Below are positions 52,738 through 63,589 of a stretch of 64,000 nucleotides of DNA, one piece after another. The first letter of the stretch is position 1. Every line of letters starts with the position of its first letter. Below the pieces are notes generated by a model. It worked only from the letters and a program-made list of their open reading frames with translations, ran no database searches and was not told the DNA's origin. Both the position numbers and the translations under genes were made by a program. The stretch comes from an uncultured Gemmatimonadaceae bacterium (GTDB taxonomy: Bacteria > Gemmatimonadota > Gemmatimonadetes > Gemmatimonadales > Gemmatimonadaceae): contig CAVUDW010000003.1 in assembly GCA_963740355.1 (NCBI GenBank), forward strand, positions 160,001 to 224,000, read 5' to 3'.

Positions 52738-53880
52738 CTAGCCGGCGCTGGGCAGCGCGTCCGCGGGTGGCACGTCCATCACCCCTTCGGCGGTCTCGAT
52801 GATCAGCTGATCCACGACGGCCTTCAGGTCATTCGTCTTCGCGAAGGTTGCCAGCTGTCGATCGGCACTCGATCCTTCGGCGAGAATCTTGTACGCGTAC
52901 TCGACTTCCTTGCGCGTGCCCAGTTCGTCGACGATGTCCCCAAGGAACCAGTCGAGAAATTCGCGGATCAGCTGCGGCGCGGGAAGTTCGACCTGCTTGC
53001 CGAAGTCGATCAGCTTGCCGCCGAGCCCATATCGCACGGCGCGCCACTTGTTCTCCTCGATCAGGGCTGAGGAGTAGACGCGGAACGTCGTGTTGTCGCG
53101 CCGCATCTTGTAGAGCTTTGCGATCAGTGCCTGCAGGATGGCCGCGATGCACACCGCCTCGTCGACGCGGGTGCAGACATCGCAGACGCGGAATTCGAGC
53201 GTCGGATAAGTGCCATGCGGCCGGATGTCCCACCAGATCTTGTGCGACCCGGGAATCGATCCTGTTTCGACGAGGGTATCGATGTACGAGGTGTAGTCGT
53301 AGTACGAGTTCAGCAGCGGTGGCACACCGGAGCGCGGGAAGGCGCGGAACACGACACTGCGATATGAGCGCAGCCCCGTCTCACGCCCGTACCAGAACGG
53401 CGAACTGCTGGTGAGGCAGAGGATGTGCGGCAGGAAATAGCGCGCCACGTTGCAGGCATCGACGAGGAAGTCCTTGTCCTCGATGCCGATGTGCACATGC
53501 GTACCGAAGATCAGCAGGCGCTGGGCGAGGTCGCCCATGTCATTGCGCGTGCCGAGATAGTGATCGTACGGCGTGATCTCCTGCGTCTGCCAGTTCGCGA
53601 AGGGGTGGGTGCCTGCGGCGGCGATGCGATATCCCTTCTTCGCCGCCAGTTCCATCACGCCCTTGCGCAGCATGACGAGTTCCTTGCGCACCTCGGCCGG
53701 CGTCTGGCAGATGTTGGTGCCCACCTCGATGATCGACTGGTGCAACTCCGGCTTCACCTGCGTCAGCACGCGGTGGTCTTCGGCCAGGAGCTGCGTCACG
53801 TACGACACCAGATCTCGCGAGACCGGGTCGATGATCTGGTACTCTTCCTCGACGCCCAGGGTGAGGGATGGTGCCTTCAT
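52738..53880 (-). CDS. Carboxylate-amine ligase, YbdK/GCS2 family
   Basis: TLGVEEEYQ, GTHPF, FGTHVHIG, SSPFW, WWDIRP, TLEFRVCD. Confidence 0.92.
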   Translation of the reverse strand: MKAPSLTLGVEEEYQIIDPVSRDLVSYVTQLLAEDHRVLTQVKPELHQSIIEVGTNICQTPAEVRKELVMLRKGVMELAAKKGYRIAAAGTHPFANWQTQEITPYDHYLGTRNDMGDLAQRLLIFGTHVHIGIEDKDFLVDACNVARYFLPHILCLTSSSPFWYGRETGLRSYRSVVFRAFPRSGVPPLLNSYYDYTSYIDTLVETGSIPGSHKIWWDIRPHGTYPTLEFRVCDVCTRVDEAVCIAAILQALIAKLYKMRRDNTTFRVYSSALIEENKWRAVRYGLGGKLIDFGKQVELPAPQLIREFLDWFLGDIVDELGTRKEVEYAYKILAEGSSADRQLATFAKTNDLKAVVDQLIIETAEGVMDVPPADALPSAG

Positions 53881-53949
53881 GGGTCGATTCCGGCTGGGGT
53901 GTGGCCTGCAAAGCGGAGGTGCGCCGGCGGCGCCTGCCGCAGAATAGTC

Positions 53950-55320
53950 CTAACGTGGCTGTACAAGAAAGGTGGGCACCGTGGACCCACCGCCCGCCGA
54001 GACGTTGAGCAGTGCGGCCGTCGACAAGCGGCAGAGCCAGCCGTCCGAGTAGGCGCCGTCGCAGAGGAAGGGCGCGGTGTCGTACATGCGGTCGATCACC
54101 TGTGACGCGCCGTCCACCAGCGACGGATATCCCTGCGACGGAATGCCGACCCGTTCCTGTACCACGTACGGATGCTCGACGGCGGTGCGCAGCGCGGCGC
54201 TCCACGTGTCACCATCGACCGTCCACCCGAGCACGATGCCAGCGCCACCGTAATCGTCGTTCGGCTTCAGCACGAAGCGATCGCGGTGCTGGGCCGCATA
54301 CGACAGCAGGTCGATTTGCTCGCCATGAAAGGTCGTGGAGCGTTCCTCGACCACCCGTGTCCACGGGATGCACGACGTCACCGCGGCATGCTGGTCGGCC
54401 GAGAGGAAATGTGCGTTGCGCTCGTCGGTGAGTGCTGCCAGCGATGCCTTCTTGTGCAGGAACTTGCAGCGCGGTGGATTGACCATGCAGACGTTGCCAT
54501 CGCGATAGGCACGGAAGACCGGATGATCGGCGCCACCCCGTTCAGCCAGCTCGTGCAACAGGACGCGCTTGTAGAGCAACGTGACCGGCGTGCCGGCGAA
54601 GGTCAGCGTCGTGCCGTCGTAGGACGCGTCACGCGGATCGACGATCGAGCACGGGATCCCCAGGTGCCGGAAATGCGTCTGGAAAATCTCGAACTCGCTG
54701 GCGGTCGGCACTTCCTTCCAGTCGATGATCCCGATCTGCGGCACTTCGCGAACACCGCGCCAGGCCGCCCATGCGTCGAGCACGGCGCGAATGACACCAT
54801 GCCGCGTCGGGACGGGGATCAGCTCCCAGTCACGTGCAAACCGTCGTGTCACCGGCAGGTCGCTGAACATGTCGGCCAGCGCGTCATTGTAGCCGGCGCC
54901 AGCAGGCGTTTCCGCGTTGTACTCGGTGAGTGAGATCTCGCCCGACTCGTCATTGACGAAATAGTCGAGTCGCGAGGTCGGGCTGGCCGACGGAAATCCG
55001 GGATCGATGTCCACCAATCCCTCCTCCCAGTCGGCGAGCCGGAACTGCTGCCGAACCGTCGGGTCGCTGAGGGCGGCGGCGAGGATCGCATCGAAGGCCG
55101 GCATCAGCCGCCGCGTCAACTGCTGCACGCGATCGTACTGCCAGCGCGTGACGAGCCGCGGGCGCAACACGGTGCAGAGTGGCCGGCCGCCGAAGATCAG
55201 CCCGCGCGAGGCGAGCTGTGAGGTCATCAGCGACGAGGACTCCTGAGCCAGTGCCGAATCGGCCAGGAGGTCATGCCACGCACTGATGGCATTGGTGGCG
55301 GTACTGCCCTGCTCCATCAT
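53950..55320 (-). CDS. Circularly permuted ATP-grasp ligase (glutathionylspermidine-synthase-like fold)
   Basis: RLD and EYNAETPAG near the N-terminus, YKR, IPWTR, VLKPNDDYGG.G, VVQE. Confidence 0.8.
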   Translation of the reverse strand: MMEQGSTATNAISAWHDLLADSALAQESSSLMTSQLASRGLIFGGRPLCTVLRPRLVTRWQYDRVQQLTRRLMPAFDAILAAALSDPTVRQQFRLADWEEGLVDIDPGFPSASPTSRLDYFVNDESGEISLTEYNAETPAGAGYNDALADMFSDLPVTRRFARDWELIPVPTRHGVIRAVLDAWAAWRGVREVPQIGIIDWKEVPTASEFEIFQTHFRHLGIPCSIVDPRDASYDGTTLTFAGTPVTLLYKRVLLHELAERGGADHPVFRAYRDGNVCMVNPPRCKFLHKKASLAALTDERNAHFLSADQHAAVTSCIPWTRVVEERSTTFHGEQIDLLSYAAQHRDRFVLKPNDDYGGAGIVLGWTVDGDTWSAALRTAVEHPYVVQERVGIPSQGYPSLVDGASQVIDRMYDTAPFLCDGAYSDGWLCRLSTAALLNVSAGGGSTVPTFLVQPR

Positions 55321-61910: not shown

Positions 61911-61915
61911 GGTGA

Positions 61916-63589
61916 TTAGCGAGCGGAGAGGACGGTACGATACAGATCGCGATAGCGCTCTTCCGAGCGTTCCCAGCCAAAGTCCCTCGCCATGGCGTCA
62001 CGCATCATCCGGAACCACTGGTCCCGGTCACGATAGGCAACGATGGCGCGTGCGATTGCCTCGGCGAACGCCGACGCCGAGAACTCATTGAAGACGAATC
62101 CGGTGACTCCATCATGCACCGTGTCCGCGAGACCGCCAACCCGCCGGACCAGCGGAACCGTACCGTAGCGCTGTGCGCGCATCTGCGTGAGGCCGCAGGG
62201 CTCGTAGCGGCAGGGCATGAGCAGGATGTCGCCGCCCGCCATCAGGCGGTGTTCGCGTTCGTCGGAGAAGTGTGTATTGATGAAGACGCGATCCGGGTAC
62301 CGCGCGGCAATGGCGCGCAGGCCGTCCACATACCGATGGTCACCGTTACCGAGGAAGACCCATTGTGCCTCGGCATTGAAGATCCAGGGATTCTCGAGGA
62401 TCAGGTCGAGCCCCTTCTGCTGCACGAGGCGCGCGGTCATGACGAAGATCGGAACATCCTGGCGCTCGGCGAGGCCCAGTTCGCGCTGCAGCGCCTGTCG
62501 GCAGACCGCCTTGTTGCCGATGTCCTCGCGCGAGAAGGGCGCGGCGATGTCCGGATCGCGGGACGGGTCCCAGCGCGTCTGGTCGATGCCGTTGAGGATG
62601 CCGACGAAGCGATCGCCCTTGAGCTGGAAGTTCTCGTGGAGGCCAAAGCCCCCTTCCGCTGTGCGGAGTTCCTCGGCGTGCGTCATGCTCACGGTGGTGA
62701 CCGCGTCGGCGAAGGAGATGCCGCCCTTGAGCAGGTTCATGCGGCCGTACCACTCGAAGCGGTCGAACGAATAGAGCGACATCGGCAGGCCGACGTCGTG
62801 CATGGTCTCCGGCGAATAGTGCCCCTGAAAGCCCGCGTTGTGGACCGTGAGCACCGTGGCCACGTCGCGGTGGTAGGGGCTATCTGCATACCAGGTGCGG
62901 AGATAGGCGAGTGCGAGACAGGTGTGCCAGTCGTGCGCGTGGAGCAGGACGGGAGCCGCGGTGATCCGCGGGAGCACGCGCATCGCGGCGGCGCAGAGGA
63001 AGGCGTAGCGTCGGGCACTATCGGCGTAGCTCCCGGTCTCGTCGCCATAGATGCCGGAGCGATCGAAGAAGTCGCGGTTGTCGATGAAGTAGACCGACGG
63101 CGGCGGTGCGGTGCCGCGCATGGCGATGATCTCCGTGGCGGCCTCGACAGGAAGCTTGTACAGCTGGGCACCGTGTGAACGGTAGGCGACCTCGACGGTG
63201 AATGGACCGTCGACCGGCTCCAGATTCGGGAACTGATCACGAATCTGCCTGTACAGCGGCATCAGGATCGCAACGTTGAGTCCGGCAGCAGCCTGATACG
63301 CAGCGAGGCTCGCGACCACCTCACCGAGACCACCGGTTCGTGCGATCGGAGCGAGCTCGGCCGTCAAGTGCACGACGGACACCGGCCTCGCATCGTTCGA
63401 CTTCAGCGGCTCCGACGGCGTCCGCTTGAGAAAGCGACCATCGGGACCACGAACCGCCTGCCCCGGCTTCGCACGCGCCGTTTTCTCAGCGGCACGTTTG
63501 GCTTTTGCGGCTGGCTTGGCGATCGCCTTGGGCGCGGGTTCTGGCGCCGTGGTGGGTTTCGCAGCCGGCTTGGGAGTCCGAGGAGGCAT
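61916..63589 (-). CDS. glgA: Glycogen synthase (GT5) with Pro/Ala/Lys-rich N-terminal extension
   Basis: RTGGLGEV, HAHDWH, TVHN..FQG, GILNGID, RLVQQKG, EPCGLTQM, GGLADTV. Confidence 0.92.
   Translation of the reverse strand: MPPRTPKPAAKPTTAPEPAPKAIAKPAAKAKRAAEKTARAKPGQAVRGPDGRFLKRTPSEPLKSNDARPVSVVHLTAELAPIARTGGLGEVVASLAAYQAAAGLNVAILMPLYRQIRDQFPNLEPVDGPFTVEVAYRSHGAQLYKLPVEAATEIIAMRGTAPPPSVYFIDNRDFFDRSGIYGDETGSYADSARRYAFLCAAAMRVLPRITAAPVLLHAHDWHTCLALAYLRTWYADSPYHRDVATVLTVHNAGFQGHYSPETMHDVGLPMSLYSFDRFEWYGRMNLLKGGISFADAVTTVSMTHAEELRTAEGGFGLHENFQLKGDRFVGILNGIDQTRWDPSRDPDIAAPFSREDIGNKAVCRQALQRELGLAERQDVPIFVMTARLVQQKGLDLILENPWIFNAEAQWVFLGNGDHRYVDGLRAIAARYPDRVFINTHFSDEREHRLMAGGDILLMPCRYEPCGLTQMRAQRYGTVPLVRRVGGLADTVHDGVTGFVFNEFSASAFAEAIARAIVAYRDRDQWFRMMRDAMARDFGWERSEERYRDLYRTVLSAR

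Follow-up and report, generated by a model that had tools for sequence, protein, structure and literature searches.

A glycogen-adjacent cassette of amide ligases and esterases in Gemmatimonadaceae as a candidate non-ribosomal peptide system

Introduction

ATP-dependent amide ligases are at the centre of several described systems, among them the glutathione, GspS and trypanothione pathways and the assembly of peptides by ATP-grasp enzymes independently of non-ribosomal peptide synthetases (NRPS). Here, we analyse nine minus-strand open reading frames (ORFs) that occupy positions 52738-63589 of a 64,000-nucleotide stretch (the window; contig CAVUDW010000003.1 of assembly GCA_963740355.1, positions 160,001 to 224,000) from an uncultured, soil-type Gemmatimonadaceae bacterium whose genome (G000) is 5.4 Mb and 94.5% complete. 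A glycogen synthase and a branching enzyme are followed there by five ATP-dependent ligases and two esterases. We report that this string is a genus-specific fusion of three modules: glgA-GH57, a pair of ATP-grasp genes (GraspA/B), and a core cassette of esterase(s), a RimK-like ligase, a ligase of the GspS/glutathione-synthetase (GSS) fold and YbdK, usually ending in a Peptidase_C26 gene. We give about an even chance to the reading that the ligases assemble a non-ribosomal peptide metabolite, probably one of gamma-glutamyl type, whose synthesis is co-regulated with glycogen in this lineage.

Glutathione, GspS and trypanothione synthesis resemble the core cassette in that a GCS2-family ligase is found beside a ligase of the GspS/YgiC-YjfC/GSS fold (here Z 29-33, TM at most 0.73) and a gene of gamma-glutamyl-hydrolase type accompanies them. 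We know of no substrate for YgiC and YjfC of E. coli. Unlike these pathways, the cassette adds a RimK-fold ligase, one or two PF00756 esterases and, here, two L-amino-acid ligases; it lacks a Pfam glutathione-synthetase match, and its genome has BshC and is without glutaredoxin or GST matches.

A second likeness is with NRPS-independent ATP-grasp assembly (BacD for bacilysin, RizA/RizB for rhizocticin, Cp1B for E-64, MyfA/MyfB for methylofuran). GraspA and GraspB are nearest to RizA, BL00235 and BacD, several different ligases share an operon, each expected to add one unit, and the circularly permuted ligase of the cassette matches Cp1B of the E-64 pathway (7e-9; PDB entry 9cjn names the Cp1B ligase). 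The abstract of PMC12568646 gives the fungal E-64 pathway as NRPS-independent. The cassette differs from such systems in having no warhead-forming or tailoring enzyme, exporter or resistance gene, and in being conserved across phyla like a primary-metabolism module, not like a strain-specific antibiotic cluster.

The mycobacterial methylglucose lipopolysaccharide locus combines the alpha-1,4-glucosyltransferase Rv3032 and the GH57 branching enzyme Rv3031 with acyl- and methyltransferases. With a glucosyltransferase and a GH57 enzyme among glucan-decorating enzymes, it is the best precedent for modification of the glucan itself; here, in contrast, the synthase is a GT5 GlgA above cut-off, the ligases are ATP-dependent amide ligases, and methyltransferases and acyl-CoA acyltransferases are absent. 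Amidoligase gene neighbourhoods were reportedly predicted by comparative genomics by Iyer, Abhiman, Burroughs and Aravind in Mol Biosyst in 2009, and the conserved operons that they are said to describe, with ATP-grasp and GCS2- or glutamine-synthetase-like ligases beside peptidases, the enzymes having unrelated folds, are alike in general kind. Within the literature collection searched, we found no paper on the cassette, its product or a link between glycogen and ATP-grasp enzymes, and an earlier description in that 2009 work is possible. The available portion of a 2024 Chem Rev review of prokaryotic alpha-glucan enzymes mentions none of 'ATP-grasp', 'esterase' and 'acylated'.

Operon layout and modularity

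The features of the string and its divergent neighbour are as follows.

61916..63589, minus strand: glgA, ADP-glucose-type glycogen synthase (GT5), by TIGR02095 and PF08323; ATG at 63589
60315..61910, minus strand: GH57 1,4-alpha-glucan branching enzyme, by PF03065 and BE_C
59098..60318, minus strand: GraspA, ATP-grasp of L-amino-acid-ligase type (PF02222, 39.1 bits)
57834..59051, minus strand: GraspB, ATP-grasp of L-amino-acid-ligase type (PF13535, 28.4 bits)
57009..57830, minus strand: Est1, PF00756 serine hydrolase of CE1/esterase D/siderophore-esterase type (6e-25, 88.9 bits)
56287..57009, minus strand: Est2, more divergent PF00756 serine hydrolase (1.2e-07, 32.2 bits)
55320..56264, minus strand: RimK-like divergent ATP-grasp, predicted RimK/LysX-ArgX/Ddl fold (AF2 model, fold search)
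53950..55320, minus strand: circularly permuted ATP-grasp, predicted GspS/YgiC-YjfC/eukaryotic glutathione-synthetase fold (profile, AF2 model)
52738..53880, minus strand: YbdK/GCS2 carboxylate-amine ligase, putative (GCS2, NF010039)
63861..64000, plus strand: 5' end of the divergent glgP (alpha-glucan phosphorylase), by translation; runs off the window, with a GH57-DUF3536 gene next

The order on the minus strand is glgA, GH57 branching enzyme, GraspA, GraspB, Est1, Est2, RimK-like, permuted ligase and YbdK. ORF places and Pfam/NCBIfam matches bear out the gene identities and the compact, operon-like packing described in the initial annotation, and the junctions listed there were identical to those that we recomputed from glgA to YbdK: 5 bp, a 4-bp overlap, 46, 3, a 1-bp overlap, 22, a 1-bp overlap and 69 bp, taking the ATG at 57009 as the start of Est2 and the ATG at 55320 as that of the permuted ligase. 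The plus-strand frame from 63867 extends into a DUF3417/Phosphorylase protein (L125) and then GH57/DUF3536, in agreement with the divergent glgP proposed there; its start codon would lie some 270-280 bp from the glgA start.

An internal promoter or terminator between GH57 and GraspA had been named as a finding that would speak against the proposed system. At this junction, where the GTG start of GraspA overlaps the GH57 stop codon by 4 bp (GTGA), a consensus scan found no promoter-like or terminator-like site. The scan gave 2 promoter-like and 3 terminator-like sites in total, no excess over shuffles. A terminator-like hairpin at 57815-57799 was rejected as a terminator, as it falls inside conserved coding sequence near the 5' end of Est1 and shuffled sequence yields more such sites on average. 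With one strand, junctions ranging from a 4-bp overlap to 69 bp and no predicted terminator at the GH57/GraspA boundary, the layout is that of a single operon, and from it we infer that all nine genes would be co-transcribed. The Rfam search of 51000-64000 gave no credible RNA family, the sole match being an IRES model with 21 bits against 191.

No transporter, carrier-protein or precursor-peptide gene was recognised among the nine, and junctions of at most 69 bp leave no room for an additional ORF. A graspetide or microviridin-type ribosomal peptide was rejected for this reason, the junctions being too short for a precursor gene.

The tight nine-gene form is confined to the genus of the window, whose four other genomes with sufficient flanking sequence all share the order (L018, which is one genome with L020; L019; L021, whose sequence stops inside YbdK; and L022). 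Elsewhere the modules are separate, and the earlier view of the nine genes as one welded system finds no support. Four other genera of the order keep (Est1)-Est2-RimK-like-permuted ligase-YbdK alone, with a Peptidase_C26 gene next in all four (by Pfam in two, by tblastn in all). Of 80 permuted-ligase loci from named genomes, 33 extend 2 kb or more past the block at both ends; a RimK-like gene is present in 32 of these, YbdK in 30, an esterase in 28 and C26 in 27, and GraspA/B in 2. GraspB adjoins GraspA in all ten genera with GraspA, so that the two always form a pair. At least four arrangements of this pair with the core were seen (L027; L075/L091; L086; L092/L116); the pair is placed 134-222 kb from it in one genus and, in another family, occurs in genomes without any permuted-ligase match.

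The frequent company of C26 bears on an alternative that we consider unlikely, namely that the cassette serves a catabolic or salvage pathway with transient gamma-glutamylation as in the Puu and Ipu amine pathways. YbdK would gamma-glutamylate an amine or amino compound, other enzymes would process it and C26 would remove the glutamyl group, the position behind glgA being a historical accident that implies no common physiology. Gamma-glutamyl amides are substrates of C26 enzymes such as PuuD; YbdK and C26 are closely associated, with C26 in 27 of 33 well-flanked loci; and the hydrolases of the core cassette equal its ligases in number. Three to five ATP-spending ligases in a row are nevertheless hard to square with catabolism, and the loci examined show no conserved oxidoreductase, aminotransferase or transporter in the cassette. 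In the genus of the window, moreover, C26 is outside the operon (in the window's genome the orthologue, with 51% identity, is 1.86 Mb away), while all of the ligases are retained.

Identities and predicted folds of the ligases and esterases

GraspA and GraspB are paralogous (about 33% identity), and the nearest characterised relatives of both are L-amino acid ligases. The closest solved relatives are 4wd3 (1.2e-18), 3vot (2.3e-14) and BacD for GraspA, and 3vot (1.2e-20) and 4wd3 (1.3e-17) for GraspB. The LAL_C2 domain (PF18603) was not recognised in either, GraspA scoring 18.3 bits against 29.4 and GraspB giving no match. YbdK is well above cut-off for both PF04107 (GCS2; 1.2e-56, 192.7 bits against 21) and NF010039 (506.8 bits against 371) and is the single PF04107 match in the genome. 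By family membership it is a carboxylate-amine ligase, and analogy points to a putative gamma-glutamyl activity.

The RimK-like protein is below the cut-offs of both PF08443 (RimK; 18.8 bits against 21) and TIGR00768 (41.8 against 143.4). Its AF2 model (pLDDT 87) is most similar to RimK (5zk6, TM 0.67), Ddl and ArgX, with TM ranging from 0.61 to 0.67. The protein thus resembles the RimK/LysX/Ddl group by predicted fold and is not a RimK family member by sequence.

For the permuted ligase, PF14403 gave 19.6 bits and missed its cut-off of 32, although many close relatives carry a precomputed PF14403 match. A profile of its family matches 3n6x at 1.1e-13 and Cp1B (9cjn) at 7e-9. With an AF2 model of pLDDT 95, the best Foldseek matches were the human, plant (soybean) and yeast (homo)glutathione synthetases (TM 0.67-0.73), and alignment with VIA-align gave Z 32.8 for YjfC (rmsd 3.1, 371 aligned), 30.5 for homoglutathione synthetase, 30.4 for GspS and 26.8 for 3n6x. 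The model thus matches solved circularly permuted ATP-grasp and GspS-like members over its full length. Similarity to the glutathione synthetases (Z 29-30.5) is strong but no stronger than that to YgiC, YjfC and GspS, and neither Pfam glutathione-synthetase family (PF03917, PF03199) is matched. Members of this family are fused to GCS2 (P0152), to an AMP-binding adenylating enzyme (P0249) and to NRPS C-PCP-TE domains (P0247). The last is a protein of 3684 aa with NRPS condensation, PCP and thioesterase domains and five stretches that match the permuted ligase. No fusion to a carbohydrate enzyme was seen among the family members examined.

These folds raise the alternative of a low-molecular-weight thiol, which we regard as very unlikely. 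YbdK would form gamma-Glu-Cys, the GSS-fold ligase would add the third residue, the RimK-like ligase would extend or conjugate it and a PF00756 esterase would act as a thioesterase in the manner of S-formylglutathione hydrolase. YbdK is the sole GCS2 gene and no PF04262 GshA was found in the genome; eukaryotic (homo)glutathione synthetases can be aligned with the whole of the permuted ligase (TM 0.67-0.73, Z 29-30); the nearest RimK-like cluster in Atlas is named 'putative glutathione synthase'; and a DinB/MST-like gene is found beside one Chloroflexota cassette. However, the fold is not specific to glutathione, given that scores for YgiC/YjfC and GspS equal those for glutathione synthetase. 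Bacillithiol is the likelier thiol in this genome, which has a BshC homologue (160 bits; L166, G000:C2:2339705-2343574), and a cassette present in 63 of 251 genomes is too patchy for a core redox buffer. The genome has four GGT genes and a weak GSH-S_ATP match only; neither glutaredoxin nor GST_N_3 was matched in it, and Est1 and Est2 do not match TIGR02821 (S-formylglutathione hydrolase). A glutathione-type redox buffer is an unlikely product, and glutathione was rejected as the main explanation given that glutaredoxin, GST and GshA were not found and that BshC is present.

Several ligases beside a carbon store could also indicate a poly-amino-acid reserve, in which one or more ligases, iterative like RimK and RizB, would build an oligo- or poly-amino-acid nitrogen store laid down with glycogen and hydrolases would mobilise it, as with cyanophycin; we take this to be distinctly unlikely. 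Amino-acid polymers are made by RimK-fold enzymes and by some L-amino acid ligases, the ligases of the cassette are co-located with glycogen genes in many Gemmatimonadota, and hydrolase genes accompany them. The architecture of cyanophycin synthetase is absent, however, as a generic ATP-binding stretch alone matches TIGR02068 (38 bits against 850) and no Mur-ligase-type domain is present. Five different ligases suggest a defined hetero-oligomer and not a homopolymer, and genomes without a GlgA match commonly have the cassette. Passages of PMC8141765 describe MyfB and RimK. A thiohistidine-dipeptide pathway (passages of PMC13674229) was rejected as a model: it shares RimK-like and YbdK-like ligases with the cassette, but its sulfoxide synthase is absent here.

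Est1 and Est2 are both above the Pfam cut-off for PF00756 (22 bits) and carry a G-x-S-x-G motif, GSSMG as the nucleophile motif in Est1 and GASFG in Est2. The nearest solved relatives of Est1 are the feruloyl esterase 5cxu and fungal siderophore esterases. Of the two, Est2 is retained more often in the core cassette (49 of 80 loci). PF00756 also corresponds to carbohydrate-esterase family 1 (CE1). No carbohydrate-binding module was found with Pfam or NCBIfam in any of the seven proteins of the string other than the two glg products.

Distribution and linkage to glycogen genes

Linkage was scored in 251 Gemmatimonadota and 201 Chloroflexota genomes by tblastn with few queries (E 1e-6 to 1e-8, coverage at least 35-50%), a procedure that divergent or non-homologous glucan genes would escape. 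Several genomes were included per genus, so the counts are not independent, and one unpublished genome is inside each count: G185 for the permuted ligase, G088 for GH57 and for GlgA, and, in Chloroflexota, G455 for the RimK-like gene and G320 for GlgA.

In Gemmatimonadota the permuted ligase, taken as the marker of the core cassette, was found in 63 of 251 genomes from 25 genera and GraspA in 30 genomes from 10 genera, while GlgA was present in 151 and the GH57 branching enzyme in 120. For the 63 ligase-positive genomes, GH57 was within 10 kb in 14, on the same contig at 25 kb to 3.4 Mb in 6, on another contig in 23 and without a match in 20. When within 10 kb it is arranged head-to-tail with the ligase in three genera and tail-to-tail in three, and a tail-to-tail operon pair could be turned into the head-to-tail form by one inversion. 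Scoring GlgA adds six genomes of a Gemmatimonas-like genus within 10 kb. The gap to glgA in this genus is 4.7-21 kb, and in the one gap examined (L068) it holds an SDR gene, an HmuY-like gene and a TonB receptor, that is, unrelated genes. The variable gap and its content fit a link to glycogen that is specific to the lineage, and likewise a catabolic cassette that came to its position by accident. No GlgA match was found in 8 of the 63 ligase-positive genomes (95-100% complete), of which one is the unpublished G185.

In two genera GraspA/B follow glgA, the GH57 branching enzyme and GH57-DUF3536, with a GH57 amylase-type gene added in one, and the core is 18-41 kb away. Taken together, ligase modules adjoin glgA or GH57 in about 11 Gemmatimonadota genera and in several orientations.

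The initial annotation made its case depend on whether such clusters are linked to glucan genes elsewhere, and this expectation is borne out in part of Gemmatimonadota and largely fails outside the phylum. Among the 34 of 80 named loci with at least 7 kb downstream, glgA or GH57 is near in 12 and 22 are unlinked. All linked loci are from Gemmatimonadota (12 of 28), with none among the 6 from other phyla. On the tree of the permuted ligase, no more than three changes are needed to account for which rows are linked. Those from Chloroflexota, Rhodothermota and Planctomycetota fall among the Gemmatimonadota, several of them at weakly supported or unresolved forks; with the patchy distribution this suggests horizontal transfer, a further point for a catabolic or salvage role. 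For the genera in which the modules do adjoin glgA or GH57, some link remains, most simply co-regulation or inherited synteny.

Among the Chloroflexota genomes, 46 of 201 have the RimK-like gene and 98 have GlgA, which is found in 17 of the 46 carriers and in 81 of the 155 non-carriers (no match in 29 of 46 and 74 of 155, respectively). For 40 of the 46 RimK-like loci (five others and the unpublished G455 were omitted), none had GlgA, GlgA2, GlgC, GlgP, GH57-DUF3536 or the GH57 amylase type within about 9.5 kb. RimK-like gene, permuted ligase and YbdK occur together there, in three different orders. One narrow clade (L138, 1-14000; relatives L137, L139, L140, L142 and L143) has the order DJ-1/PfpI, GT4, RimK-like, permuted ligase, TroA-like binding protein and DUF547, with a convergent GH57 branching-enzyme-like gene nearby and no YbdK. 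The GT4 gene was considered as a glycogen synthase and set aside, as it is unrecognisable as one. Other neighbours in the phylum are peptidases C26, S8 and M32, a DinB/MST-like protein, and CBS and VTT proteins.

Glycogen genes are near the ligase modules too often for the association to be dismissed, and this weighs against a product separate from the glucan. Either glgA or GH57 is within 10 kb in 21 of the 63 ligase-positive genomes and in 8 of 25 genera, and the distance from GraspA/B to glgA is no more than 10 kb in 17 of 30 genomes, from 7 of 10 genera. At L124 a second glgA copy is placed directly beside the cassette esterases; in family f6 GraspA/B, together with distant esterase and RimK-like genes, are found between glgA and a phosphorylase; in six loci of the narrow Chloroflexota clade a distant GH57 branching-enzyme-like gene is 2.5-3 kb away; and in four loci of this clade the DJ-1/PfpI gene and a generic GT4 gene are upstream of the RimK-like gene, directly in L138 and L139 and at about 2 kb in L142 and L143. 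Also, a genome was scored as lacking glycogen genes when tblastn with GlgA, GH57 and some further queries gave no match, which would overlook GT4-type synthases or the GlgE route. Two points of gene content add to this: the esterases are the least explained part of the system, having no obvious role in a purely amide-linked peptide, and gamma-glutamyl chemistry rests on family analogy.

These neighbourhoods, and the poorly explained esterases with them, keep alive the alternative of direct chemistry on the glucan, in which the ligases would esterify or amidate alpha-glucan, a malto-oligosaccharide primer or an aglycone with amino acids or a peptide, and the esterases would be transferases or erasers. 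It would account for glgA or GH57 repeatedly adjoining ligase modules in about 11 Gemmatimonadota genera, for the duplicated glgA beside esterases at L124, for the f6 cluster between glgA and phosphorylase, for the GH57-like and GT4 genes beside the RimK-like/permuted-ligase pair in one Chloroflexota clade and for the carbohydrate esterases among the nearest solved relatives of Est1. Ester-forming ATP-grasp enzymes do exist, as D-Ala-D-Lac ligase and the microviridin cyclases show. Yet the core cassette is present in genomes without a GlgA match (8 of 63 and 29 of 46), no glgA, glgC or glgP neighbour was found in any of 40 Chloroflexota loci and 22 of 34 well-flanked loci are unlinked, no carbohydrate-binding module was recognised in the seven non-glg proteins, the permuted ligase is found fused to peptide- or acyl-activating enzymes and not to carbohydrate enzymes, and the linkage is clustered on the tree, with three changes. 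We found nothing in support of an acylated or aminoacylated alpha-glucan as such, which had been proposed as one of two products, and judge direct glucan chemistry unlikely. That the Gemmatimonadota ligases and esterases build a peptide- or amino-acid-bearing conjugate of alpha-glucan or malto-oligosaccharide, in which ATP-grasp enzymes would form the ester or amide links to a group borne by the sugar and from which CE1-type esterases remove or to which they transfer groups, seems quite improbable.

Glycogen genes and flanking regions

GlgA is a clear family member, with 486 bits for TIGR02095 against a cut-off of 328.45, 223 bits (5e-66) for PF08323 and 65 bits for PF00534. A Lys/Ala/Pro-rich N-terminal extension of about 70 residues (63380-63589, minus strand) precedes the canonical GT5 start. 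Same-genus orthologues can be aligned from residue 32-45 onward, so part of the extension may be translated. The GH57 protein has the domain architecture of a branching enzyme (PF03065 2.8e-35, 122.5 bits; BE_C PF09210 1.2e-19, 70.9 bits) and falls below the equivalog cut-offs of NF041566 (421 bits against 920) and NF041133 (410 against 1000). By these scores it is a family member and not an equivalog of the characterised Thermus/Thermococcales-type enzymes. A second GlgA in the genome (L123, G000:C3:2250000-2268000), with 35% identity to that of the window, is divergent from a GlgC-type ADP-glucose pyrophosphorylase, and the genome therefore has two GlgA loci.

In other Gemmatimonadales (L112, L113, L115, L116, L121) the glycogen operon is longer and consists of glgA, the GH57 branching enzyme and GH57-DUF3536, to which L112 and L116 add a GH57 gene of amylase/4-alpha-glucanotransferase type. 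In the genome of the window, the GH57-DUF3536 gene is relocated beside glgP. In another Gemmatimonadota family (L117, G089:C1:1842000-1857000) a third ATP-grasp paralogue, GraspA/B, two esterases and a distant RimK-like gene are positioned between glgA and glycogen phosphorylase; the first of these esterases has 489 aa and an Enterochelin_N-like N-terminal domain.

Directly downstream of YbdK, an ORF of 151 aa (52246-52701, minus strand) has no family and shows 47% identity to its counterpart in the congener L019. A gene for a patatin-like phospholipase (50740-52227, plus strand) is a conserved operon neighbour across the genus. Past the window end (L125, G000:C3:223500-236000), glgP and GH57-DUF3536 are followed by genes for a CHAT-domain protein with a TCAD7 domain and a DUF7362/DUF7379 protein, which may be a conflict or defence-type pair.

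Discussion

The modularity of the string, the folds of its ligases and the carriers without GlgA favour the other product first proposed for this locus, a non-ribosomal, possibly gamma-glutamyl peptide co-regulated with glycogen. All folds and closest relatives are those of carboxylate-amine ligases, and with the fusions to GCS2, AMP-binding and NRPS domains and the peptidase genes (C26, S8, M32) found nearby in other phyla they argue for peptide chemistry. The linkage to C26 and the four GGT genes of the genome point to chemistry of gamma-glutamyl type. The frequent occurrence of the cassette without any glycogen gene argues against the glucan as substrate, and the recurrent glgA neighbourhood in Gemmatimonadota argues for shared regulation or long-kept synteny.

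In such a pathway GlgA and the GH57 enzyme would make ordinary branched alpha-glucan, and the glucan would not be a substrate of the remaining enzymes. YbdK would activate a carboxylate, most likely the gamma-carboxyl of glutamate, and couple it to an amine; the GspS/GSS-fold and RimK-like ligases would each lengthen a free carboxylate by at least one residue via acyl-phosphates; and in this genus a dipeptide unit would be added or supplied by GraspA/B. The product would be an intracellular small peptide or pseudopeptide, and its trimming, release or recycling could fall to the serine esterases and the C26 hydrolase. Placed behind glgA, the cassette would come under the promoter that drives glycogen synthesis, a position that fits a metabolite of stress or of the storage phase.

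Should the ligases act on the glucan after all, the locus would stand for a novel type of storage polysaccharide that carries modifications, or for a glucan primed with a peptide. For the peptide metabolite that we favour, the significance is in the breadth of its carriers. The core cassette, three ATP-dependent amide ligases with hydrolases, is present in about one quarter of the sampled Gemmatimonadota and Chloroflexota and reaches other phyla, so that identification of its product would give a function to thousands of proteins now named 'hypothetical' or 'ATP-grasp domain', including relatives of E. coli YbdK, YgiC and YjfC. Cultured carriers exist in Gemmatimonas and Roseisolibacter. The adjacency to glycogen genes in one phylum leads to a physiological hypothesis, that the compound may be made in carbon excess or under stress.

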